DNA of 64,000 nt. It comes from Escherichia coli (GTDB lineage: Bacteria > Pseudomonadota > Gammaproteobacteria > Enterobacterales > Enterobacteriaceae). Made by a program: the position numbers and the translations under genes. The number at the start of each line of letters is the position of its first letter. Within the stretch, counting starts at the first letter, position 1. The notes below the pieces were generated by a model. That model was given only the letters and a program-made list of their open reading frames with translations. It was not told the origin of the DNA and made no database searches. The stretch lies in assembly GCF_030013205.1 (NCBI RefSeq), contig NZ_CP122648.1. One strand, 5' to 3'. Of this stretch, positions 7,636-53,232 are shown piece by piece.

Positions 7636-8142
7636 ATGTCACAAACCGTTCATTTCCAGGGCAACCCGGTTACAGTCGCCAATTCCATCCCGCAGGCGGG
7701 TAGCAAAGCGCAGACTTTTACTCTCGTGGCAAAAGATCTGTCTGACGTCACCCTCGGTCAGTTTGCGGGTAAACGCAAAGTGCTGAACATTTTCCCGAGT
7801 ATTGATACCGGTGTTTGCGCCGCATCAGTACGTAAGTTTAATCAACTGGCAACCGAGATCGACAACACCGTTGTGCTGTGTATCTCTGCCGATCTGCCGT
7901 TCGCCCAGTCTCGTTTCTGCGGCGCAGAAGGTCTGAACAACGTTATCACCCTCTCCACTTTCCGTAATGCTGAATTCCTGCAAGCCTACGGTGTGGCAAT
8001 TGCTGATGGCCCACTGAAAGGTCTGGCAGCGCGTGCCGTTGTGGTTATTGATGAAAATGACAATGTGATTTTCAGCCAGCTGGTGGATGAAATCACCACC
8101 GAGCCGGATTACGAAGCAGCTCTGGCTGTACTGAAAGCATAA
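7636..8142 (+). CDS. tpx: Thiol peroxidase
   Basis: 168-aa ORF; recognised by sequence recall. Confidence 0.95.
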
Positions 8143-8145
8143 GTT

Positions 8146-8180
8146 AATATGCCTGATGGTGTTGCACCATCAGGCATATT
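8146..8180. terminator. Bidirectional intrinsic terminator between convergent tpx and tyrR (16-bp perfect stem, 3-nt loop)
   Basis: AATATGCCTGATGGTG-TTG-CACCATCAGGCATATT sits between the tpx stop (8140-8142) and the tyrR stop (8186-8188). Confidence 0.7.
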
Positions 8181-8185
8181 CGCGC

Positions 8186-9727
8186 TTACTCTTCGTTCTT
8201 CTTCTGACTCAGACCGTATTCCCGCAACTTATTGGCAATCGCGGTATGCGAAACGCCCAGGCGTTTTGCCAGTTTGCGCGTGCTGGGATAATTGCGATAA
8301 AGCTGGGTTAATACCGAGCGTTCAAAACGGCTGGTGATTTCGTCCAGCGAACCTTCCATCGCATCTTCGCCCACGGCTACCGTTGCGGCGTCATAATCCG
8401 GTAACAAAATATCCTGTGGACGCAGCTCATAACCGTCCAGTTGTGTCAGTGCGCGATAAATAGCGTTCTTTAACTGCCGCACATTTCCCGGCCACGCATA
8501 ACGCGTAAGTACAGTATTCAGGTCAGCGGCCAGTTTCGGACGCGGCACGCCCTGCTCGTCGGCAAAGCGGGCGACGAACAGCTCGGTTAACGGCATGATG
8601 TCCTGCGGACAGTCACGTAGCGGCGGCAGATTAAGCGTCAACACGTTCAGACGATAATAAAGATCTTCACGGAACACGCCTTTTTGCACCAGTTCGACAA
8701 GATTCTTCTGCGTCGCGCAAATCACCCGCACATCGACATGCACCTCATGGTCTTCGCCAACCCGACGGAAAGTGCCATCATTAAGGAAACGCAGTAATTT
8801 CGCCTGCATCCGTGGTGACATCTCACCTATTTCATCCAACAGCACCGAACCACCGTTCGCCTGCTCAAAGAACCCTTTCTTCCCTTCCGGAGCATGACCA
8901 AACAGTTCACTCTCGACCGCATCTTCCGGTATAGACGCACAGTTCAGCGCCAGATAGGGTTTGCCCGCGCGTGGGCTTGCCTGATGACAGGCATATGCAA
9001 AGAGATCTTTTCCGGTGCCGGTATCACCGGTTATCAGCAATGGCGCGCTTAGCATCGCCAGTTTCTGCGCCTGTTCGACAACATGCTTCATTTTCGGGCT
9101 GACGGCGACAATTTGACTGAAGGCGCTGACGTCCTGGGCGGCGACATTTTGCAACTGACGACCCATACGAATCGTTGATCGCAACATCACCACCGCACCG
9201 GTCAGGACGTGTTGATCATTTTCATCCTGAAGATAAACAGGCGTAATCTCCATCAGGAAATTCTGTCCATTAATAACGACATGCTCGTTATGGGAATCCT
9301 GCGGTTCGCTTTCCAGCCAGCGTAAAAAATTAAAGCCGTTAATCAATTGCGCGGCGGTATGGTTGCGCAGGCGATCCAATTTTTGCCCAAAAAGCTGACA
9401 GCTCGCCGGGTTCGCCATATCCACTTTGCTTTTCATATCGACAGAGAGCACAGGTTCAGGCAACGCTTCCAGTAACGCGCTCAACGCCAGATGCTCACGT
9501 TCAGAAGGCATCCACGGGACAGTACGGACATCGGTAACACCTGCAATACGGCGTATTTCGGCCATCAGACTGCTGAAACTCTCAAACTCCAGTTCAGCAA
9601 AATTGAGGTAGATTCGCCCAATGGGATCAATCTCAATACCGCGTAAATCAATGCCTCTTAGCACGAGTAGATCGAGTAATTCGCGGGTCAGACCGAGTCG
9701 GTCTTCACAAAAGACTTCCAGACGCAT
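8186..9727 (-). CDS. tyrR: Sigma54-type enhancer-binding-protein-family regulator TyrR
   Basis: ORF 8186-9754; start placed at MRLEVFCEDR to give 513 aa. Recognised by sequence recall. Confidence 0.9.
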   Translation of the reverse strand: MRLEVFCEDRLGLTRELLDLLVLRGIDLRGIEIDPIGRIYLNFAELEFESFSSLMAEIRRIAGVTDVRTVPWMPSEREHLALSALLEALPEPVLSVDMKSKVDMANPASCQLFGQKLDRLRNHTAAQLINGFNFLRWLESEPQDSHNEHVVINGQNFLMEITPVYLQDENDQHVLTGAVVMLRSTIRMGRQLQNVAAQDVSAFSQIVAVSPKMKHVVEQAQKLAMLSAPLLITGDTGTGKDLFAYACHQASPRAGKPYLALNCASIPEDAVESELFGHAPEGKKGFFEQANGGSVLLDEIGEMSPRMQAKLLRFLNDGTFRRVGEDHEVHVDVRVICATQKNLVELVQKGVFREDLYYRLNVLTLNLPPLRDCPQDIMPLTELFVARFADEQGVPRPKLAADLNTVLTRYAWPGNVRQLKNAIYRALTQLDGYELRPQDILLPDYDAATVAVGEDAMEGSLDEITSRFERSVLTQLYRNYPSTRKLAKRLGVSHTAIANKLREYGLSQKKNEE

Positions 9728-43618: not shown

Positions 43619-44425
43619 ATGATCGAAACGCTGCTTGAAGTGCGTAATTTAAGTAAAACGTTCCGCTACCGGACCGGCTGGTTTCGTCGTCAGACCGTAG
43701 AAGCGGTAAAACCCTTGAGCTTTACGCTACGTGAAGGCCAGACACTGGCGATCATTGGTGAGAATGGTTCTGGTAAATCCACGCTGGCAAAAATGCTGGC
43801 GGGAATGATAGAACCTACCAGCGGCGAGTTATTGATTGACGATCATCCGCTGCATTTTGGCGATTATTCCTTCCGCAGTCAGCGTATTCGCATGATTTTT
43901 CAGGATCCTTCGACCTCGTTGAATCCCCGTCAACGTATCTCGCAAATTCTGGATTTTCCACTGCGTCTGAACACCGATCTGGAACCTGAACAGCGTCGCA
44001 AACAGATTATTGAAACGATGCGTATGGTTGGGCTGCTACCGGATCACGTCAGTTACTATCCGCATATGTTGGCACCCGGGCAAAAACAGCGTCTGGGGCT
44101 GGCGCGCGCGCTGATATTGCGCCCAAAAGTCATTATTGCCGATGAAGCCCTCGCCTCACTGGATATGTCGATGCGTTCGCAGTTGATTAATCTGATGCTT
44201 GAGTTACAGGAAAAACAGGGCATTTCGTATATTTATGTTACCCAGCATATCGGAATGATGAAGCACATTAGCGACCAGGTGCTGGTGATGCATCAGGGCG
44301 AGGTTGTCGAGCGAGGCAGCACCGCAGATGTGCTGGCATCGCCGCTGCATGAACTCACCAAACGGCTGATTGCCGGTCATTTTGGCGAGGCATTGACGGC
44401 GGATGCGTGGCGTAAGGACCGTTAG
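43619..44425 (+). CDS. sapF: Sap ABC transporter ATP-binding protein
   Basis: 268-aa ORF with Walker A GENGSGKST. Confidence 0.9.
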   Translation: MIETLLEVRNLSKTFRYRTGWFRRQTVEAVKPLSFTLREGQTLAIIGENGSGKSTLAKMLAGMIEPTSGELLIDDHPLHFGDYSFRSQRIRMIFQDPSTSLNPRQRISQILDFPLRLNTDLEPEQRRKQIIETMRMVGLLPDHVSYYPHMLAPGQKQRLGLARALILRPKVIIADEALASLDMSMRSQLINLMLELQEKQGISYIYVTQHIGMMKHISDQVLVMHQGEVVERGSTADVLASPLHELTKRLIAGHFGEALTADAWRKDR

Positions 44426-44432
44426 TGTTTTG

Positions 44433-44469
44433 CACCTCATCCTGACAGGGCCCCCCTCAGGATGAGGTG
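44433..44469. terminator. 13-bp perfect-stem hairpin between convergent sapF and the MFS gene; T-rich on the sapF side
   Basis: CACCTCATCCTGA ... TCAGGATGAGGTG with an 11-nt loop; abuts the MFS stop (44474-44476). Confidence 0.6.
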
Positions 44470-44473
44470 TTCA

Positions 44474-45637
44474 TTACTTTTGATTGTCGATTCTGGTGAG
44501 AGCAACCAGCAATGCCAGCGTATAACACACCGTAATTGCCAGACTCATTTTTAACAGTGTTTCTCCGCCAATTCCCGACAATGGCGCGGCTATACCGCCG
44601 AAGACAAACATGCTCATCCCCATCAACGCAGACGCCGTTCCAGATTCCTGCGTCCCTACTGCACTCATAGCCTCTGCCCCGCCAACAGTGCCGATGCCGC
44701 TACAAAATGCGATGGTGAAAAATAATGCCACCAGTGCCGGAATGGGCAATTGTATCCATGCGCATAAGACCGTGAGCATTGCACACAAAATTGCCGCTAT
44801 CAGGCCACCTCGCAACAATGTCATCGCGTTAATCCGTCGCGCCAGGCGCGAGAAGATCCATGAAGCAATGATAAGTCCGATGCCGTTAAGGCCAAACACC
44901 AGGCTAAATTGCATTGGACTAAAGCCAAATTCCTTCTGCAACACGAACGACGAAGAGCCGATATATGCAAACAAACCGGCCAGCATAAAACTTTGAATCA
45001 GGCAAAAGCGCATAAAACGGCGGTTCTGCACCACGCTTCGTCCGGTTAATAGCAATGATGAGCCCCTTTTATTTTCTGGCAAGGTCTCATTAATAAATAA
45101 CAGGCAGCCCAGCAACAGTACGGTGCTAATTTCAGCCATTACCCAGAATAAAGTGCGCCAGTCAAAAGTGCTGACAATGTACCCGCCCAGCACTGGCGAC
45201 AACACCGGTGCCAGGCCATTCACCGTCATTAACAGCGCAAAAAACTGGGTCAACGTTACTCCCTGATATTTGTCACGAGCAATAGAACGAGAGAGCACCG
45301 AACCACCCGCCCCCGCGATCCCTTGAATAAAACGCCAGACCACCAGCCAGTAAATATTGTTCGTTGTCGCGCACAAAATGGAAGAAACAATAAACAATAG
45401 CAACGACAAGATTAACGGACGTTTACGCCCTATTTTGTCGCTCAGAGGGCCAAATAACAGTTGTCCGACGCCAAGACCGATCAGTGATGCAGTCAGCGTT
45501 AATTGCGTTATGGTCGTGGTTGCCGCCAGTTGCTCAGACATCTCCGGCAAAGCCGGCAAATAAAGATCGGTACACATCGGGCCGATACCGGCTAAAAGAC
45601 CAAGAATCAATGCCCATGAAAGAGAGACTCTAGCCAT
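44474..45637 (-). CDS. MFS (DHA1, Bcr/CflA-like) efflux transporter; last gene of the efflux cluster
   Basis: 387-aa polytopic membrane ORF with MFS signature GPLSDKIGRKRP after the first helices; starts 8 nt after the OMF stop. Confidence 0.8.
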   Translation of the reverse strand: MARVSLSWALILGLLAGIGPMCTDLYLPALPEMSEQLAATTTITQLTLTASLIGLGVGQLLFGPLSDKIGRKRPLILSLLLFIVSSILCATTNNIYWLVVWRFIQGIAGAGGSVLSRSIARDKYQGVTLTQFFALLMTVNGLAPVLSPVLGGYIVSTFDWRTLFWVMAEISTVLLLGCLLFINETLPENKRGSSLLLTGRSVVQNRRFMRFCLIQSFMLAGLFAYIGSSSFVLQKEFGFSPMQFSLVFGLNGIGLIIASWIFSRLARRINAMTLLRGGLIAAILCAMLTVLCAWIQLPIPALVALFFTIAFCSGIGTVGGAEAMSAVGTQESGTASALMGMSMFVFGGIAAPLSGIGGETLLKMSLAITVCYTLALLVALTRIDNQK

Positions 45638-45645
45638 ATTATTCC

Positions 45646-47019
45646 TTACTTGAGTGATGACATGCCGCCGTCCAGCGACTGCCAGAGCGTGATTCGGTTT
45701 GTAAAATCAGTCAGTTGTAGTGCCAGCAGCGCCTGCTGTGCGCTCCACAAGCTGCGCTGCGCCGTCAACACGGTCAGGTAATCACCAACACCCGCCTGAT
45801 AGCGACGCAAGCCAACATCGACCGTTTGTTGCTCAGCTTTAACATACTGGCGCTGTGCATCCAGTTGCTCTTCAAGCGTGGTCCGCCGCGCCAGTGCGTT
45901 AGCGACATCTTTAAATGCGCTCTGAACGGTTTTTTCATAGGTGGCAATGAGTCCACGCTTTTGTGCTTCTGCGTAACGAAGCTGCGCCAGATTACTTCCG
46001 CCAGTGAACAGCGGTAATGTGACCGATGGCGTAAATGACCAGATCTGCATTCCGTGGCTGAACAACGACGACAATGCGTCACTGCCAACACCAGCGCTGG
46101 CAGTCAGCGAAATCGTCGGAAAAAAGTTAGCCCGCGCCGCGCCAATATCGGCATTGGCGCTCTTCAAATTATGTTCCGCTTCCTGGATATCCGGGCGACG
46201 CAGCAGAACGTCAGATGACACTCCCGCAGGAACCAGACTTATCATTTGTTCCGGCAGGCTTTCCAGTGTTCCCGGTAGCAGATTTTCCGCAAGCGTTGTA
46301 CCTGCCAGTAAGTTCAGCGCATTTTTATCCTGCATCACTTGTGTCTGATAGCTGGCAACGCTGGCGCGCGCTTGCTGATAAACACTCATCGCCTCACTGA
46401 CATCTGTCGCTGCCGCCGTGCCAACCTGTTGCTGGCGCTGGATAATTTTCAATGAGTTTTCTGCACTGGCCATCGTTTCTTTTGCCAGGGCCAGGTTGCT
46501 GTTATCAGCCGCCAGTGTCAGCCAGGCGGTGCTGATTTCAGCAATCAGCGTTAAACGAGTGTTCTGGGCTGTAAATTCACTGGCAAGCCAGGTTTCCCGC
46601 GCCGCCCGAGATAAACTCTGATTACGACCAAACAGATCTAACGTAAAACTGGACACCGTGCCGTCAGCCTCGGCAGTGGTTTCCGTACCATTCGCCAGCG
46701 AACGACTGCGGGTTGAACTTAAGGCCGCATTCACCGTCGGGAATAACGACGCATTAGTTTGCCCATAGAGCGCCCGTGCTGAGTCAATATCAGCAATCGC
46801 TTTTTGCACATCGCGGTTACTGTTCAGTGCAATAGTCACCACCTGCTGCAATCGGGGATCGTGGATCACCTGCTGCCAGTCATGGCTGATTGCCTTTCCC
46901 TGGCCCTGTGCTCCCGGCAAGGTCGCCGGGATTGGGGATTCAGGCGTGCTGTAGTGGGGCTCGAGCGAGACACATCCCGCACTCAACAGCACCAGAAAAA
47001 TAAGAGAACGACGCAACAT
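45646..47019 (-). CDS. Outer-membrane efflux lipoprotein (OMF, NodT/OprM family)
   Basis: 457-aa ORF with lipoprotein signal peptide (LLSAGC) and the long coiled-coil-rich body typical of OMFs. Confidence 0.8.
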   Translation of the reverse strand: MLRRSLIFLVLLSAGCVSLEPHYSTPESPIPATLPGAQGQGKAISHDWQQVIHDPRLQQVVTIALNSNRDVQKAIADIDSARALYGQTNASLFPTVNAALSSTRSRSLANGTETTAEADGTVSSFTLDLFGRNQSLSRAARETWLASEFTAQNTRLTLIAEISTAWLTLAADNSNLALAKETMASAENSLKIIQRQQQVGTAAATDVSEAMSVYQQARASVASYQTQVMQDKNALNLLAGTTLAENLLPGTLESLPEQMISLVPAGVSSDVLLRRPDIQEAEHNLKSANADIGAARANFFPTISLTASAGVGSDALSSLFSHGMQIWSFTPSVTLPLFTGGSNLAQLRYAEAQKRGLIATYEKTVQSAFKDVANALARRTTLEEQLDAQRQYVKAEQQTVDVGLRRYQAGVGDYLTVLTAQRSLWSAQQALLALQLTDFTNRITLWQSLDGGMSSLK

Positions 47020-47022
47020 AAC

Positions 47023-50000
47023 TTACTCCTGACGGCGCGGTTTACCGGCAAACAAACGTTTCACCAGTACAAAAAACAGAGGAACAAAGAAAATAGCCAG
47101 CAACGTAGCGGTCAGCGTACCGCCAATAATGCCCGTACTAATGGCGATGCGGCTGTTCGCCCCTGCGCCGGTTGCTATCGCCAGCGGCATTACCCCCGCA
47201 ATAAACGCCAGCGAGGTCATGATGATTGGGCGTAAACGAGTCTGCGCCGCGCGTAATGCCGCACGACTCAAGGAATAGCCCTCTGCAACCGCCGCTTCAG
47301 CAAATTCCACAATCAGAATGGCGTTTTTCGACGACAAGCCGATAGTGGTTAATAGCGCCACCTGGAAGTAAACATCGTTGTTTAAATCACGCATCCAGGC
47401 CGCCAGCGCCGCGCCAAGAAGCCCCAGAGGGATCACCAGAATGACCGAGAACGGGACTGACCAGCTTTCGTACAGTGCTGCAAGGCAGAGGAAAACCACC
47501 AGAATAGAAACTGCATACAGACTCAATGCCTGACCGCTGGCCAGTTTCTCCTGCAATGACAAACCACTCCAGGCCCAGGTTGTTCCCGCAGGAAGACTGT
47601 TTGCCAGTTCCTCCATTTTTGTCATTGCATCGCCGGAACTAAAGCCAGTCGCATTTTCCCCCTGAATTTCATAGGCTGCCGAGCCGTTGTAGCGCACCAG
47701 TCTTTCCGGTCCATACAGCCAGCGGGTGGTCGCAAAAGCAGAGAATGGTGTCATGGCGTTATCGCTGCCGCGCACAAACCATTTACCTAAGTCTGACGGC
47801 GCGGAACGAAATTCGCTGTCGCCCTGAATGTAGACTTTTTTCACACGACCACGGTCAATAAAGTCATTCACATAAGTACCGCCCCACGCACTGGACAGGG
47901 TGTCGGTGACATCATTCAAACTCAACCCTAATGACACCACTTTATTGCTATCAATATCTACCTGCAATTGCGGCATTTGTGGCAAATCATTGGCGCGTAC
48001 AGAATGTAACTCCGGACTTTGATTCGCTTTTTCTATCAACTGATTACGCATTTGCAGCAGTGTTTCACGATCGGTTCCACCGTTAGCTAACAATTCAAAC
48101 GTAAAACCATTGCTTTGCCCCAGCCCATCAACGGCTGGCGGCGTCATCGCAAATACCGTGGCATCACGAATTGTGCCCAGCTCTTTGGTTGCCCGTAGGG
48201 CGATAGCCTGGGCGGTGTTTTCTGCCCCTTTACGTTGAGACCAGTTTTTCAACGAAACAAACGCCATCCCGGTGTTCTGTCCGCTGCCGCTAAAACTGAA
48301 ACCATCAACGGTAAAGATGACATCGGTATTTGCTTTCTCGTTAATCAGGAACCAGTCAACAATCTGGCGATTCACTTCTGCTGTACGGGCAGCGGTCGCC
48401 CCGGCCGGCAGCGTGTACTGCACCATGATTTCGCCCTGGTCTTCAGTGGGTAAGAAACTGCCCGGCAGTTTCCACATCATCAGGGCCATTCCACCACCCA
48501 GTACGACATAAAGCCCCATCGTTCGAGCAGCACGGCGCAGGACATAAATTACGCCTCGCTGATATTTATCTTCAGTACGGCGGTAAAAGCGGTTAAATGC
48601 GCCAAAAAAGCCTTTTTTATGTGGCGGAACATGCTGGAGGACGGAACCGCACAGGGCGGGAGTCAAGGTCAATGCCACTACCACGGAAAGCAGCATTGCG
48701 GAGATAATGGTTATCGAAAACTGACGATAAATTACCCCCGTAGATCCCCCAAAGAAGGCCATAGGCAGGAATACGGCTGACAACACCAGCGCAATGGCAA
48801 CCAGTGCGCCAGAAATCTCGCCCATTGATTTTTCCGTGGCTTCACGCGCGGGCAACCCTTCGTCACGCATAATGCGTTCGACGTTCTCCACCACCACAAT
48901 GGCATCGTCCACCAGCAAGCCGATCGCCAGCACCATTGCAAACAACGTCAGGGTATTAATCGAATAGCCAAACAACGCAAGAACGCCGAATGTGCCCAGC
49001 AAAACGACGGGGACAGCTAACGCCGGAATCAGTGTGGCACGCAGGTTTTGCAGGAATAAATACATCACGCAAACCACCAATACGATGGCTTCAAACAGCG
49101 TCTGAATTACGTCCTCTACAGAGATTTTAATAAATTCAGTGCTGTCTTTCGGGTATGCGATGTCGTATCCCTGCGGCATGTTCCGCTGGAATTCGGCAAT
49201 CTTATCCTTGACCAGCGTCGCCGTATTCAGCGCATTCGCACCGGGCGAAAGCATTACAGCAACCCCGGCAGACGGGTGACCGTTAAGTTTGCCGATAGCG
49301 GTATAATCTTCACTGCCCATCTCAACGCGAGCCACATCTTTTATACGAACAACTGCGCCGTCTGACTGGCTTTTCACGATAATATTTTTGAACTGATCCA
49401 CCGTCTGCAAGCGAGACTGCGCACGTACCGTTGCGGTCAGTTGCTGAGTATTCGGTGAAGGCAATGCCCCTATTTTCCCGGCAGTAACCTGCACGTTTTG
49501 CGCTTCAATAGCACTTTGCACGTCTGAAGGCATTAGCGAGTAAGACGCCAGTTTGGCCGGGTCAAGCCAGATGCGCATAGCGTATTCCGCGCCAAAGACT
49601 TGCAGACTCCCCACACCTTCAACACGCGCCAGCGGGTCCTGAACGTTACTAACCAACCAGTCGGCGATATCCGAACTGGAGGCTTTGTCAGTGGTGTCAT
49701 ACACGGCAGCAATCAGCAAAAAGTTGCTTTGTGATTTCTCCACCGTAACACCCGTTTGCTGCACTTCGCTGGGTAGGCGCGACTCCGCCTGCTGAATTTT
49801 ATTCTGCACCTGAACCTGTGCAGTATCTGGATCGGTACCTTGTTCAAAGGTCACATTAATACTGACCGAACCATCAGAGCTGCTGGTTGAGCTGAAATAG
49901 AGTAAATTATCAAGCCCAGTGAGTTGTTGCTCGATAACCTGAGTCACGCTGTTCTCCAGCGTTTCGGCAGAAGCACCAGTATAAGTGGCTGAAATTTTAA

Positions 50001-50130
50001 TGGTCGGTGGCGCAACGTCAGGATATTGTGCGACGGGCAATGTGCGAATAGCCAGAATCCCCGCCAACATAATCAAAATGGCGATAACCCAGGCAAAGAC
50101 CGGGCGGCGAACAAAAAAGCGCGAAAACAT
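47023..50130 (-). CDS. RND (HAE1, AcrB/MexB-like) inner-membrane efflux pump
   Basis: 1035-aa ORF with strong recalled similarity to AcrB blocks (MFSRFF..RPVFAWVIAI..., VQVQNK..., GLLVDDAIVVVENVER, NDVYFQVALLTTIGLS). Start overlaps the MFP stop (TGATG). Confidence 0.85.
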   Translation of the reverse strand: MFSRFFVRRPVFAWVIAILIMLAGILAIRTLPVAQYPDVAPPTIKISATYTGASAETLENSVTQVIEQQLTGLDNLLYFSSTSSSDGSVSINVTFEQGTDPDTAQVQVQNKIQQAESRLPSEVQQTGVTVEKSQSNFLLIAAVYDTTDKASSSDIADWLVSNVQDPLARVEGVGSLQVFGAEYAMRIWLDPAKLASYSLMPSDVQSAIEAQNVQVTAGKIGALPSPNTQQLTATVRAQSRLQTVDQFKNIIVKSQSDGAVVRIKDVARVEMGSEDYTAIGKLNGHPSAGVAVMLSPGANALNTATLVKDKIAEFQRNMPQGYDIAYPKDSTEFIKISVEDVIQTLFEAIVLVVCVMYLFLQNLRATLIPALAVPVVLLGTFGVLALFGYSINTLTLFAMVLAIGLLVDDAIVVVENVERIMRDEGLPAREATEKSMGEISGALVAIALVLSAVFLPMAFFGGSTGVIYRQFSITIISAMLLSVVVALTLTPALCGSVLQHVPPHKKGFFGAFNRFYRRTEDKYQRGVIYVLRRAARTMGLYVVLGGGMALMMWKLPGSFLPTEDQGEIMVQYTLPAGATAARTAEVNRQIVDWFLINEKANTDVIFTVDGFSFSGSGQNTGMAFVSLKNWSQRKGAENTAQAIALRATKELGTIRDATVFAMTPPAVDGLGQSNGFTFELLANGGTDRETLLQMRNQLIEKANQSPELHSVRANDLPQMPQLQVDIDSNKVVSLGLSLNDVTDTLSSAWGGTYVNDFIDRGRVKKVYIQGDSEFRSAPSDLGKWFVRGSDNAMTPFSAFATTRWLYGPERLVRYNGSAAYEIQGENATGFSSGDAMTKMEELANSLPAGTTWAWSGLSLQEKLASGQALSLYAVSILVVFLCLAALYESWSVPFSVILVIPLGLLGAALAAWMRDLNNDVYFQVALLTTIGLSSKNAILIVEFAEAAVAEGYSLSRAALRAAQTRLRPIIMTSLAFIAGVMPLAIATGAGANSRIAISTGIIGGTLTATLLAIFFVPLFFVLVKRLFAGKPRRQE

Positions 50131-51251
50131 CAGGCGTTGCCTCCATTAGCCTGAACTTCAACAGCCTTGACGGTCTGCCCTGAAGTGACTTTGGCAGAAC
50201 CTTCAACAATCAGTCGGTCGCCGTTGTGCAGGCCGTTCAGCACCAGCCATTTATCACCATACGTTTCTCCCGTTTCGAGCGTTCGCTGCTCTACTTTATT
50301 GTCTTTATTCACCACCAGCGCAGTTGCATTGCCTTTAGCATCGCGCGTGACGCCCTGTTGCGGCGCGAGAATAGCGTCTTCCATCACGCCTTCATCGACA
50401 CGAGCGCGAACAAACATTCCCGGTAATAACTGCTGTTGTGGATTGGGGAAAATCGCCCGTAATGTCACCGAACCGGTAGACTCATCTACAGCGACTTCGG
50501 TGAGTTCCAGACGCCCTTTTTCGCTGTAGGTTGTGCCATCTTCCAGAATAAGTGAGACGCTCATGGTGTCACTGTTGGTCGCCAGTGACTGTTTACGCAG
50601 ACGTAATAAATCGACACTGGAGCGAGTGAGGTCGACATACATTGTCTCCAGACCACGAATAGTCGTTAACGCTGTATCTTGCGACGCGGTCACCAGTGCG
50701 CCAGGGGTTACCGACGAAATGCCAATTCGCCCTGAAATCGGTGCGGTTACCGTGGTCCAGTCAAGATTAATGCGCGCAGTTTCCAGCGCGGCTTTTTTCG
50801 CCTCTACACTGGCTTTATCTTGTGCACAGGTAGACTGAGCATCATCAGCATCCTGTTGTGAAACACCGTTCTCTTTCACCAGTCGGGCATAACGCTGCGC
50901 TTTCTGGCAATCGGCTTTTACCAGTGCCTGTGCTTGTTGTAATGCTGCCCGAGCTTCATTCCATGCAGCCTGATAACTGGCCGCATCAATCTGGTAGAGA
51001 GGCTGTCCAGCCTTGACCAGATCCCCTTCCTTAAATAAGCGTTTCTGGATAATTCCCCCAACCTGCGGACGTACTTCAGCACTGAGCGCAGCACTGGTGC
51101 GTCCGGTTAATTCACTGACTACCGAGACCGGTTGAGATTTGACTGTAACAACGCCGACTTCTGTTTCTGACGGGGATGAATTGTTACTTTGCGTATTATC
51201 ACAACCAGATAAGAGCAGCATTGCCACTACAGATGTTGCTATATACTTCAT
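50130..51251 (-). CDS. Periplasmic membrane-fusion lipoprotein (AcrA/MexA family)
   Basis: ORF 50130-51284; start placed at MKYIATSVVAMLLLSGC (lipobox, GGAG 8 nt upstream). Confidence 0.8.
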   Translation of the reverse strand: MKYIATSVVAMLLLSGCDNTQSNNSSPSETEVGVVTVKSQPVSVVSELTGRTSAALSAEVRPQVGGIIQKRLFKEGDLVKAGQPLYQIDAASYQAAWNEARAALQQAQALVKADCQKAQRYARLVKENGVSQQDADDAQSTCAQDKASVEAKKAALETARINLDWTTVTAPISGRIGISSVTPGALVTASQDTALTTIRGLETMYVDLTRSSVDLLRLRKQSLATNSDTMSVSLILEDGTTYSEKGRLELTEVAVDESTGSVTLRAIFPNPQQQLLPGMFVRARVDEGVMEDAILAPQQGVTRDAKGNATALVVNKDNKVEQRTLETGETYGDKWLVLNGLHNGDRLIVEGSAKVTSGQTVKAVEVQANGGNA

Positions 51252-51278
51252 TATTTTCTCCAGGGTGAGAAATACCCT

Positions 51279-51298
51279 CCTCATTAAAATTAATGAGG
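51279..51298. promoter_or_regulatory. Perfect inverted repeat CCTCATTAA-aa-TTAATGAGG 28-47 nt upstream of the MFP start; candidate operator
   Basis: Read from sequence; 9-bp arms, 2-bp spacer. Confidence 0.35.
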
Positions 51299-51335
51299 AT
51301 ATGTCAGGGATATTCAGTTATAACGAACCCGCATC

Positions 51336-51351
51336 GCGAAATGAATTTCGC
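51336..51351. promoter_or_regulatory. Perfect inverted repeat GCGAAAT-ga-ATTTCGC between tetR and the MFP gene; candidate operator
   Basis: Read from sequence; 7-bp arms, 2-bp spacer. Confidence 0.35.
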
Positions 51352-51361
51352 AATGAAATAA

Positions 51362-51379
51362 GGGGGATTAATATCCCCC
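51362..51379 (-). terminator. GC hairpin (GGGGGA-TATTAA-TCCCCC) followed by a U-rich tract on the minus strand, 20 nt after the tetR stop
   Basis: Minus strand reads hairpin then TTATTTCATT; candidate terminator or attenuator between regulator and pump genes. Confidence 0.4.
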
Positions 51380-51399
51380 GCTATTGGTTAATTCTGTTC

Positions 51400-51966
51400 T
51401 TATTTATTTATCAACATACTAACAATATCCTGATATATTTCCTGCAGATGTTGTGGATCGCTTTTTTGCGGTGTTAAACGACGATAAACCGTACCTTCCA
51501 TCATGGTAGCAAACACTTCAACGCAGCAACGAATGTGCTCGTCGCTAAGATGGGGATGCATTCTTTTCATATGTGCACAACCGTTAGCGAACATTCTGGC
51601 GTCAGCTTCTTCAAGCATTGCCATAACCCGCGGGTTGCGTGTGGCTTCTGCAGCCACTTCCAGCATCAGCGCGTCGTCGTCCTCATTTAAGGATTTACGC
51701 AAGGCAAGGACTTCCGGGAAGTGATCGGTACGCGCGTCAATGTCCATTTGGGCAATACGAAAGTCGATGATACGGCGAACCATCTCTTCAATAATGGCGT
51801 CTTTGTTGGCGAAGTAACGATATATCTGACCCACGCTAAGCTGAGCTTCGCTGGCAATTTGCGACATACTGGCGGCATGAAACCCGCAGCGACGAAAACA
51901 CCGACGGGCGGCGTTAATGATTTCATCCTGACGCTGTTTGTGGCGTATCTCCAGCTTGCTGGTCAT
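51400..51966 (-). CDS. TetR/AcrR-family transcriptional regulator, co-oriented with and upstream of the pump genes
   Basis: ORF 51400-52065; start placed at MTSKLEIRHK (AGGAGA 5 nt upstream) so the HTH (AARRCFRRCGFHAASMSQIASEAQLSVGQIYRYF) sits at the usual N-terminal position. The longer 221-codon version would read through the palindrome at 51992-52009. Confidence 0.75.
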   Translation of the reverse strand: MTSKLEIRHKQRQDEIINAARRCFRRCGFHAASMSQIASEAQLSVGQIYRYFANKDAIIEEMVRRIIDFRIAQMDIDARTDHFPEVLALRKSLNEDDDALMLEVAAEATRNPRVMAMLEEADARMFANGCAHMKRMHPHLSDEHIRCCVEVFATMMEGTVYRRLTPQKSDPQHLQEIYQDIVSMLINK

Positions 51967-51991
51967 TTCTGTCTCCTGGCCTATCACTTGG

Positions 51992-52009
51992 TGAGAATGA
52001 TCGTTCTCA
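51992..52009. promoter_or_regulatory. 18-bp imperfect palindrome TGAGAATGATCGTTCTCA 26 nt upstream of the proposed tetR start; candidate autoregulatory operator
   Basis: Two mismatches from perfect dyad symmetry. Confidence 0.35.
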
Positions 52010-52443
52010 TTTTTGCTGATTATACGTTTCTCCAAAGTAATGGAAAGTATTTTTATCTTATTCATGGTGCATATTCTGATAATGAAGAGATTGTGGAGAT
52101 TATGTGAAGATAGTTGACAATATTAAGTTGGGGTCAATTCATCAGAAAGGCTGCTACTTGTTGTCGCCAGTTCTGTTTTCATCATCAAACTTATCGGAGC
52201 TAATACGAATAGTTTCAGAGTCAGATTCTATAAGATATTCCCCCAACCTACCCCTTGCAGGCGTCAAGAGTAGATAACGCAAAATGCTCTGTACCGCAGC
52301 TTCTCTCCGGTACAGAAAGCGCAACTATAGCCACCCACAGCCAGGTTGATTATAATAACCGTTTATCTGTTCGTACTGTTTACTAAAACGACGAATCGCC
52401 TGATTTTCAGGCACAACAAGCATCAACAATAAGGATTAAAGCT

Positions 52444-53232
52444 ATGGGTTTTCTTTCCGGTAAGCGCATTCTGGTAACCGGTGTTGCCAGCAAACTGTCC
52501 ATCGCCTACGGTATCGCTCAGGCGATGCACCGCGAAGGAGCTGAACTGGCATTCACCTACCAGAACGACAAACTGAAAGGCCGCGTAGAAGAATTTGCAG
52601 CTCAATTGGGTTCTGACATCGTTCTGCAGTGCGATGTTGCCGAAGATGCCAGCATCGACACCATGTTCGCTGAACTGGCGAAAGTTTGGCCGAAATTTGA
52701 CGGTTTCGTACACTCTATTGGTTTTGCACCTGGCGATCAGCTGGATGGTGACTATGTTAACGCCGTTACCCGTGAAGGCTTCAAAATTGCTCACGACATC
52801 AGCTCCTACAGCTTCGTTGCAATGGCAAAAGCTTGCCGCTCCATGCTGAATCCGGGTTCTGCCCTGCTGACCCTTTCCTACCTTGGCGCTGAGCGCGCTA
52901 TCCCGAACTACAACGTTATGGGTCTGGCAAAAGCGTCTCTGGAAGCAAACGTGCGCTATATGGCGAACGCGATGGGTCCGGAAGGTGTGCGTGTTAACGC
53001 CATCTCTGCGGGTCCGATCCGTACTCTGGCGGCTTCCGGTATCAAAGACTTCCGCAAAATGCTGGCTCATTGCGAAGCCGTTACCCCGATTCGCCGTACC
53101 GTTACCATTGAAGATGTGGGTAACTCTGCGGCATTCCTGTGCTCCGATCTCTCTGCCGGTATCTCCGGTGAAGTGGTCCACGTTGACGGCGGTTTCAGTA
53201 TCGCTGCAATGAACGAACTCGAACTGAAATAA
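52444..53232 (+). CDS. fabI: Enoyl-ACP reductase (NADH)
   Basis: 262-aa ORF; recognised by sequence recall. Confidence 0.95.

Follow-up and report, generated by a model that had tools for sequence, protein, structure and literature searches.

The chromosomal eefRABCD efflux operon of Escherichia coli and its terminal MFS gene, eefD

Described efflux operons and identity of the locus

The chromosomal eefRABCD operon has been described in E. coli SMS-3-5, ATCC 25922 and ATCC 35218 (PMC12817139, PMC12482432). As a seventh RND system, it occurs in E. coli phylogroups linked to infection; eefR mutations can derepress it, and its clinical relevance is already in the literature. In Klebsiella aerogenes, the operon was described as the three genes eefABC, silenced by H-NS (PMC12817139). 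The mdtABCD-baeSR locus of E. coli K-12 provides another case of an RND operon with an MFS gene downstream of the RND genes. There, MdtD (IceT) is not required for the drug phenotype of the RND pump, MdtBC forms a heteromultimeric pump that borrows TolC in the absence of an OMF gene in the operon, whereas eef carries its own OMF gene, eefC, and control is exerted by a two-component system instead of a TetR repressor (PMC4462101). The likeness between mdtABCD and eef is one of operon layout. The original prediction, that classical RND operons carry no MFS partner, was nevertheless overstated because mdtD is such a partner (PMC4462101).

The window analysed here is a stretch of 64,000 nucleotides from E. 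coli (contig NZ_CP122648.1). It contains, between sapF (end 44425) and fabI (start 52444), five co-oriented genes on the minus strand that were assigned from their open reading frames and protein families to a TetR regulator, an RND adaptor, an RND permease, an OMF and an MFS transporter, in that order, in agreement with the RefSeq annotation of an identical locus. Over 7.9 kb, the region matches several E. coli chromosomes at 100% identity; in these, the same five genes are annotated with the same sapF and fabI flanks, the position also reported for eefRABCD (PMC12817139), and the copy in the window is identical to that of swine ETEC/O139:H1 isolates. An exact copy of the EefR palindrome validated by EMSA is present at 51992-52009. 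The identity to these chromosomes, the shared gene set with its sapF and fabI flanks and this palindrome identify the locus as the eefRABCD operon already published for E. coli, and the MFS gene as eefD, its last gene. Gene content and order, chromosomal position, operator and near-identical DNA are all shared with the three described strains; there is no difference of substance, and the window holds another strain's copy. When presence was scored as at least 80% of the length at 90% identity or more, 2037 of 5426 complete E. coli genomes (about 38%) carried the region. K-12 does not carry the operon: its homology to the window ends at 44432 and restarts at 52294.

The gene eefD (44474-45637, minus strand) encodes a 387-aa Bcr/CflA (DHA1, 12-helix) protein, a predicted drug/H+ antiporter, that matches the NCBIfam model TIGR00710 over residues 7-378 (283.2 bits, cut-off 200.9) as well as EmrD and MdfA; RefSeq names it a multidrug efflux MFS transporter. 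Upstream of it, eefC (45646-47019, minus strand) encodes a 457-aa NodT-type outer-membrane factor lipoprotein, as annotated and by TIGR01845 (366 bits, cut-off 210). The 1035-aa product of eefB (47023-50130, minus strand) is an HAE1 RND permease (TIGR00915, 1548 bits, cut-off 940; NF000282, 1496 bits, also above cut-off), and the 373-aa product of eefA (50130-51251, minus strand) is an RND periplasmic adaptor lipoprotein (TIGR01730, 274 bits, cut-off 95) whose best specific models are MexA and AcrA. For eefA the RefSeq start (MKYIATS...) was used, the mechanical open reading frame extending beyond it to 51284; likewise, the mechanical frame of 221 aa for eefR overshoots the real start of a 188-aa TetR-family protein (51400-51966, minus strand; TetR-family matches and RefSeq coordinates), the repressor function of which comes from PMC12482432. 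With permease, membrane-fusion adaptor and NodT-type OMF contiguous and each above its family cut-off, EefABC is an HAE1 RND tripartite pump.

Read directly on the minus strand, the eefC/eefD junction is ...AAG TAA GGAATAAT ATG..., with a spacer of 8 nt (45638-45645); a Shine-Dalgarno-like motif, AAGGA, overlaps the stop codon of eefC. This bears out the claim that the MFS gene begins 8 nt past the OMF stop. The other junctions of the pump genes are equally short: the eefA stop and the eefB start share 1 nt (TGATG), and 3 nt lie between eefB and eefC. The packing of an MFS gene behind RND genes was thus correctly observed, yet it is already described and tested in the literature, including the experiments that had been proposed: RT-PCR at the junctions, co-derepression in a delta-eefR strain, separate knockouts and clones of eefD and eefABC, and distribution surveys (PMC12482432, PMC12817139). 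What is added here is modest comparative detail that leaves the published picture unchanged, namely that eefD is ancestral but dispensable, that packing at 8 nt is confined to Escherichia, that sapF shares the hairpin located after eefD and that the structured eefA leader is conserved between genera.

Transcription of the operon and its proposed EefR-repressed promoter

The expectation that one transcript spans the RND genes as well as the MFS gene is supported by published work in strain ATCC 35218, in which RT-PCR, qRT-PCR and RNA-seq were carried out (PMC12482432). cDNA was amplified across all intergenic junctions of eefRABCD, and deletion of eefR raised eefA, eefB, eefC and eefD 83-, 28-, 43- and 27-fold, respectively. 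The sequence of the window is compatible with the five genes lying on one EefR-repressed transcript. The operator (51992-52009) is the palindrome TGAGAA-N6-TTCTCA, of minus-strand sequence TGAGAACGATCATTCTCA, identical to the site validated by EMSA in PMC12482432. It is kept in 20 of 21 eefR-bearing loci from about nine genera, 38-47 nt upstream of eefR. The spacer is 6 nt long both in the window and in the Results of PMC12482432; the pattern with a 5-nt spacer given in the Discussion of that paper had no match. Directly upstream of the operator, a sigma-70 promoter-like site (52019-52046, minus strand; TTTCCA, 16-nt spacer, TATAAT) agrees with the consensus at 10 of 12 positions and is proposed on this consensus match only.

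A near-copy of the operator with one mismatch, located at 51266-51283 immediately before eefA, was rejected as a chance match: TTCTCA is replaced by TGTTCA in other Escherichia, and the DNA downstream of eefR served as the non-binding control in the published EMSA (PMC12482432), which counts against it.

Tight packing does not make co-expression obligatory, and eefD might also, or mainly, be driven by a promoter of its own in the 3' end of eefC. Amplification across a junction proves read-through and does not exclude additional start sites; moreover, in other genera the eefC-eefD spacer of 43-152 nt with its GC-rich hairpin leaves room for independent signals. In the window, however, the promoter scan found no minus-strand promoter-like site inside eefC, and the 8-nt spacer has no room for a terminator. 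The sole EefR operator is located upstream of eefR, and the 27-fold derepression of eefD in the delta-eefR strain resembles that of eefB (28-fold) and eefC (43-fold) (PMC12482432). Separate control of eefD is therefore quite unlikely.

EefD as a probable single-component antiporter and its relation to EefABC

The original prediction also held that two classes of pump share one outer-membrane channel. MFS engines that truly use an outer-membrane channel shared with RND pumps are known in EmrAB-TolC, EmrKY-TolC and FarAB-MtrE; they are 14-helix DHA2 proteins that work with an EmrA-type adaptor, and EefD has neither property. The alignment of EefD with the 12-helix antiporters EmrD (2gfp, residues 10-361, E 3e-26) and MdfA (E 2e-17) runs from end to end, whereas the EmrB and DHA2 models match only its N-terminal half (residues 29-191) and its 387 aa compare with about 500 aa for EmrB. 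Motif A reads GPLSDKIGRK at residue 63. A crude hydropathy scan gave 10 distinct peaks, so that the count of 12 helices is taken from homology and the published model. The only adaptor of the locus, EefA, is of the MexA/AcrA type, with 400 bits for the MexA model (E 1e-119), 388 bits for AcrA (E 6e-116) and merely 30 bits for EmrA (E 2e-7); the locus encodes no adaptor of the EmrA type. EefD consequently differs from the tripartite MFS pumps of the EmrAB-TolC type on both counts, being no 14-helix DHA2 permease and having no dedicated EmrA-type adaptor.

Because it belongs to the Bcr/CflA family, aligns over its full length with EmrD and MdfA and is active when cloned without eefABC, EefD is a 12-helix Bcr/CflA protein and very probably a single-component antiporter. 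The last point comes from a K-12 delta-acrB host without eefA or eefC, in which pBReefD alone conferred 4-fold resistance (PMC12482432). A second study reported no effect of eefD on MICs, and a slower ethidium efflux upon eefD deletion even with AcrB present (PMC12817139); the two papers disagree on whether EefABC or EefD alters antibiotic MICs at all. EefD shares family and architecture with EmrD, MdfA and Bcr of E. coli, all inner-membrane drug/H+ antiporters that deliver to the periplasm (PMC8277102), although its identity to Bcr is only about 30% (PMC12482432) and the substrate cavity modelled for it by Pugh et al. would differ from theirs (PMC12817139). The alternative, in which EefD would enter a second tripartite assembly through EefC and perhaps EefA, giving two inner-membrane engines for one exit duct, draws on the position of eefD immediately after the OMF gene on the same transcript and on the existence of MFS pumps that do form tripartite systems, such as EmrAB-TolC and FarAB-MtrE (PMC8277102). 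The known examples are nonetheless DHA2 proteins of 14 helices, each with an EmrA-type adaptor of its own (PMC8277102), a description that fits neither the 12-helix DHA1 protein EefD nor a locus devoid of such an adaptor, and EefD confers resistance in a host that lacks eefA and eefC (PMC12482432). We consider a shared channel highly improbable, and the claim is unsupported.

The distribution of eefD was surveyed in 38 loci. The gene directly follows eefC in Escherichia, in Klebsiella/Raoultella, in some Kluyvera and in Enterobacter soli. The E. cloacae complex and Lelliottia cleanly lack it while keeping the same flanking genes, and clusters without the MFS gene also occur in Leclercia and others. 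Within E. coli, eefD and eefB are each present in exactly 2043 of 5426 genomes. The pairwise identities of EefD follow those of EefA, EefB and EefC (Pearson 0.89-0.92). Whether the MFS gene always accompanies the RND genes, a question raised at the outset, thus receives a positive answer within E. coli and a negative one in the E. cloacae complex, Lelliottia, Leclercia and others. Homologous clusters without the MFS gene had been named beforehand as a finding that would tell against the proposal; they do exist, and they are no argument against co-transcription in E. coli. Since eefD is absent from many orthologous clusters, it is an optional partner, and the RND pump does not need it.

The closest relatives outside Escherichia illustrate these variations. 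The eefABC genes of K. aerogenes and K. pneumoniae encode an orthologous RND pump (EefA 77-79%, EefB 87% and EefC 74% identical), and in K. pneumoniae and the K. oxytoca group eefD lies right after eefC as in E. coli. The Klebsiella loci differ in having no eefR upstream, no sapF or fabI flanks and another genomic location, and in an eefC-eefD spacer of 45-50 nt with a GC-rich hairpin compared to 8 nt in E. coli. The 8-nt length is kept in four other Escherichia species or strains and elsewhere is replaced by 43-152 nt with a GC-rich hairpin; this packing is specific to Escherichia.

The best explanation of the locus, and one that we hold with considerable confidence, is a single EefR-repressed transcript that encodes the EefABC pump together with an independent, single-component EefD, the two acting as a two-step relay. 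One EefR-repressed promoter upstream of eefR would drive a five-gene transcript for the repressor, the EefA adaptor, the EefB permease, the EefC channel and the EefD antiporter, and the close junctions read from the DNA (an overlap of 1 nt and spacers of 3 and 8 nt) would permit translational coupling along the operon. EefD would act alone in the inner membrane, without docking onto EefC, and would move substrates from the cytoplasm or inner leaflet to the periplasm, from which EefABC or AcrAB-TolC would then pick them up for expulsion through the outer membrane. Such a relay, instead of a shared channel, is suggested by the way single-component and RND pumps behave in general; single-component antiporters release their substrates into the periplasm and show synergy with tripartite RND pumps (PMC8277102). 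In evolutionary terms, eefD would belong to the ancestral cluster yet be dispensable, some genera having inherited it along with eefABC and others having deleted it.

Published support for synergy between EefD and EefABC at the eef locus itself is weak. MICs with pBReefABCD equal those with pBReefABC, with little or no measurable synergy (PMC12482432), and co-expression of eefD with eefABC lowers ethidium accumulation only marginally and non-significantly (PMC12817139). Both observations favour the view that eefD is co-transcribed for regulatory convenience only and exports a different physiological substrate unrelated to EefABC, as proposed for mdtD/iceT. So do the orthologous clusters in which an intact eefRABC cleanly lacks eefD, and the precedent of MdtD, which is unneeded for MdtABC-mediated resistance and has been linked to iron-citrate export (PMC4462101). 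Against it, cloned EefD and EefABC overlap in the drugs they affect (sanguinarine, chloramphenicol, tetracycline, erythromycin and clindamycin; PMC12482432), eefD directly follows eefC in at least four genera and has co-diverged with the pump genes, and within E. coli eefD and eefABC are never found apart. Functional independence of this kind is possible, and we regard it as doubtful. A more speculative proposal, to which we give a rather low probability, is that EefD and EefABC would together export a native substrate other than an antibiotic in two dedicated stages, EefD feeding the periplasm and EefABC clearing it; under this proposal, selection for co-production fixed by translational coupling would have driven the collapse of the spacer in Escherichia from 43-152 nt with a hairpin to 8 nt.

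Hairpins at the end of the operon and in the eefA leader

A hairpin with a perfect 13-bp stem (44433-44469; dG -30.6 kcal/mol, z = -4.1 relative to shuffled sequences) lies between the convergent genes sapF and eefD, 7 nt past the sapF stop and 4 nt past the eefD stop. In the sense of eefD (minus strand), it is followed by CAAAACAC and thus by no U-tract; a U-rich tail is present on the sapF side only, and the terminator scan scored only that side (plus strand). In K-12, which has no operon, a homologous hairpin still follows sapF and carries a compensatory change in the stem. From the missing U-tract on the eefD side and this retention in K-12, the hairpin belongs to sapF at least as much as to eefD, and it is probably a shared or bidirectional terminator of both genes. 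It had been taken for the sole terminator-like hairpin, located after the MFS gene; the hairpin is real, but another is found within the five-gene unit, at 51362-51379 (minus strand).

The latter is the first of three hairpins in the eefR-eefA intergenic leader (51252-51399, minus strand), which was analysed with the terminator scan and an alignment of 25 loci. It is terminator-like, with GGGGGATATTAATCCCCC followed by TTATTTCATT. Because this terminator-like hairpin between eefR and eefA is conserved, the five eef genes may be unequally expressed, and a second promoter before eefA is possible, which counts against the model of a single transcript from one promoter. In the alignment, the middle helix is paired at 95%, and 7 of its 9 pairs have changes on both sides; it alone was recovered by RNAalifold. 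Helices 1 and 3 were seen sequence by sequence; their pair counts of 72% and 58% are underestimates, the alignment being out of register.

Between 44300 and 52500, the sole Rfam match was Bcj14 inside eefA, below threshold (32 bits, gathering score 59), and it was dismissed as a chance match. Conservation of the structured leader before eefA extends across genera, and the Klebsiella clusters without eefR retain the same leader.

The eefRABCD operon and its transcript

Five co-oriented ORFs were called on the minus strand of the window between sapF (+), which ends at 44425 on the left flank, and fabI (+), which starts at 52444 on the right. They encode a TetR-family regulator (eefR, 51400-51966), an RND adaptor lipoprotein (eefA, 50130-51251; TIGR01730, 274 against a cut-off of 95), an RND permease of 1035 aa (eefB, 47023-50130; TIGR00915, 1548 against 940), an outer-membrane factor of 457 aa (eefC, 45646-47019; TIGR01845, 366 against 210) and an MFS transporter of 387 aa (eefD, 44474-45637; TIGR00710, Bcr/CflA, 283 against 201); the last four of these five products thus exceed the curated family cut-offs of NCBIfam. 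Two mechanical ORF calls were misleading: the 221-aa eefR ORF overshoots the annotated start at 51966 and runs to 52065, over its own operator and promoter (51967-52065), and a 252-aa ORF antisense to fabI and inside it (52423-53181, -) is almost certainly not a gene.

The RefSeq annotation places the same five genes in the sapF-fabI interval. Several E. coli chromosomes match the 7.9-kb region at 100% identity, and 2037 of 5426 complete genomes of the species contain at least 80% of it. Pugh et al. (PMC12817139) described eefRABCD as five genes for a TetR regulator, an adaptor, EefB (the seventh E. coli RND transporter), an outer-membrane factor and the MFS pump EefD. In their survey the operon always occupied the fabI-sapF interval; phylogroups B2, D, E, F and G carry it, A, B1 and C do not, and all five genes occur in any E. 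coli assembly that has one of them. The locus of the window agrees with this description in every testable feature and is the published eefRABCD operon. Our own counts, 2043 of the 5426 complete genomes for eefD and exactly the same number for eefB, independently confirm the published linkage within E. coli. Two eefD and eefB matches in these genomes lie on plasmids and not on chromosomes, consistent with the plasmid-borne copies noted previously (PMC12482432).

Direct reading of the sequence bore out the 8-nt packing of the MFS gene behind the outer-membrane factor gene that had been described: the eefC/eefD junction reads TAA GGAATAAT ATG, and the AAGGA ribosome-binding motif upstream of eefD overlaps the eefC stop codon. 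A 1-nt overlap (TGATG) joins eefA and eefB, and a 3-nt spacer separates eefB from eefC; genes down the operon are probably translationally coupled. The single transcript that had been proposed is supported by published RT-PCR, in which cDNA gave all intergenic amplicons (PMC12482432). Upon deletion of eefR, expression rose 83-fold for eefA, 28-fold for eefB, 43-fold for eefC and 27-fold for eefD, in agreement with RNA-seq (PMC12482432). Combined, our results and the published ones show one EefR-controlled transcript, a functional tripartite EefABC pump and an EefD that is functional alone. The original prediction was thus correct as an observation, partly correct as an interpretation, and already known.

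Distribution of eefD across genera

A scan for EefC with one genome per species gave 38 loci, which were analyzed by tblastn with all five proteins and by inspection of the junctions. In four groups eefD comes directly behind eefC. The spacer between them measures exactly 8 nt in four Escherichia lineages, 45-50 nt in K. pneumoniae, the K. oxytoca group and Raoultella, 43-46 nt in Enterobacter soli and a related MAG, and 91 and 152 nt in two Kluyvera species. These non-Escherichia spacers (loci L010-L016, L025, L026, L033 and L039; at about 9365-9460 in most loci) always contain a GC-rich hairpin, e.g. GCCGGGCGGCAACGCCCGG, that lacks a full U-tract; those of Kluyvera hold long REP-like palindromes with dG down to -76 kcal/mol. 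They could cause partial termination or differential mRNA stability. Since spacers elsewhere are longer and bear hairpins, the very tight eefC-eefD packing is a feature of Escherichia.

The original prediction had raised the question of whether the MFS gene always accompanies the RND genes; it is missing from many orthologous clusters outside E. coli. No eefD was detected within 5-8 kb downstream in E. hormaechei, E. asburiae, E. mori, Enterobacter genomosp. O, two Lelliottia, Leclercia, Dryocola, a Citrobacter sp., an Erwinia sp. and Pantoea coffeiphila. In most species of the Enterobacter/Lelliottia group (L014, L017-L021, L023), the gene families directly after eefC are those found after eefD in E. 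soli and the related MAG (L026, L033): a 98-aa ORF comes first, followed by an oppositely oriented gene of 316 aa. The loci of this group thus differ cleanly in the presence or absence of eefD alone. Pairwise identities of EefD parallel the EefA, EefB and EefC values (Pearson 0.89-0.92), and the three clades are the same. The simplest reading of these comparisons is that eefD would have belonged to the ancestral cluster and been lost several times. The MFS pump is an optional partner of the eef cluster. In Shimwellia pseudoproteus (L031), an EefC homologue with 69% identity (8001-9365) had no eefA, eefB or eefD match by tblastn within 8 kb on either side, and may be an orphan outer-membrane factor gene.

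Relationship between EefD and EefABC

The proposal that two pump classes share one outer-membrane channel is unsupported, because EefD has 12-helix homology, the sole adaptor of the locus is MexA/AcrA-like, and EefD is active in a K-12 host lacking eefA and eefC (PMC12482432). EefD can be aligned over its full length with EmrD (E 3e-26) and MdfA, whereas the match to the 14-helix EmrB is limited to its N-terminal half, and from family knowledge EefD is probably a 12-helix single-component antiporter. In contrast, MFS pumps that work in tripartite systems have 14 helices and a dedicated EmrA-type adaptor (PMC8277102).

The best mechanistic model is a two-step relay, in which EefD would export the substrate into the periplasm and either EefABC or AcrAB-TolC would carry it from there to the outside, a general behaviour described for single-component and RND pumps (PMC8277102). 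A serious rival is that eefD may be a passenger serving a substrate unrelated to EefABC: evidence for synergy between eefD and eefABC is weak (PMC12817139, PMC12482432), and a similar suggestion exists for mdtD. The latter is the MFS gene of the E. coli RND operon mdtABCD (PMC4462101), which resembles eefRABCD in this respect and was overlooked in the statement that no MFS partner occurs in classical RND operons. The comparison of MFS and RND knockouts or clones that had been called for was made in both papers, with partly conflicting results. In one, eefD alone shifted MICs 4-fold and eefABC 8- to 32-fold, with nothing added by eefABCD (PMC12482432); in the other, there were no MIC effects, EefABC exported ethidium and ethidium efflux was slower in a delta-eefD strain (PMC12817139). 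The conflict concerns whether EefABC or EefD alters antibiotic MICs.

Hairpins, leader and EefR operator

The hairpin at 44433-44469 (13-bp stem, dG -30.6 kcal/mol, z = -4.1), taken as the terminator after the MFS gene, is real but not eefD-specific. It is followed by a T-rich tail on the sapF strand, the sole side scored by the terminator scan, and the eefD strand shows no U-tract. K-12 lacks the operon, and its homology to the window ends exactly at 44432 and resumes at 52294. It nevertheless keeps a homologous hairpin after sapF (L040), which lies about 23 nt more distant from the stop codon of sapF and has a different loop and a compensatory change in the stem (window, CATCCTGA/TCAGGATG; K-12, CATTCTGA/TCAGAATG). 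The tail on the sapF side and the retention in K-12 indicate that the hairpin is common to the convergent sapF and eefD. Nor is it the only terminator-like hairpin, as had been stated: a second, GGGGGATATTAATCCCCC followed by TTATTTCATT, lies at 51362-51379 between eefR and eefA.

This second hairpin is the first of three successive ones in the eefR-eefA intergenic region (51252-51399, -); they are followed, ahead of the start of eefA, by a conserved GTTCACCCTGGA motif. In an alignment of this region from 25 loci, the three-hairpin leader is kept in Escherichia, Kluyvera, Enterobacter, Lelliottia, Leclercia and Cedecea; Klebsiella and Raoultella loci without eefR still carry it. The middle helix is 95% paired, and 7 of its 9 pairs show compensatory changes altering both sides. 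The leader could act on eefA as an attenuator or in some other regulatory role and may deserve study; according to published work, phenotypes from multi-gene eef constructs need sequences upstream of eefA (PMC12482432).

The palindrome to which EefR binds, upstream of its own gene, is TGAGAACGATCATTCTCA (PMC12482432), and an exact copy is present at 51992-52009, just downstream of a promoter-like site (TTTCCA-16-TATAAT, 52019-52046, -). In 20 of the 21 eefR-bearing loci from about nine genera (loci L002-L035), the operator TGAGAA-N6-TTCTCA is kept 38-47 nt before eefR and differs at no more than 1-2 positions; the exception, L024, has only 88 nt upstream of eefR, and the region fell outside the scan. 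This conservation suggests that EefR autoregulation is ancestral to the cluster. A second operator-like site (TGAGGAGGGTATTTCTCA, one mismatch; 51266-51283, -) lies 15 nt ahead of the start of eefA. Neither other Escherichia nor other genera conserve it, and it is therefore probably a chance match specific to the strain of the window. The operator spacer is given as N5 in the Discussion of PMC12482432 and as N6 in its Results; in the window it is also N6.
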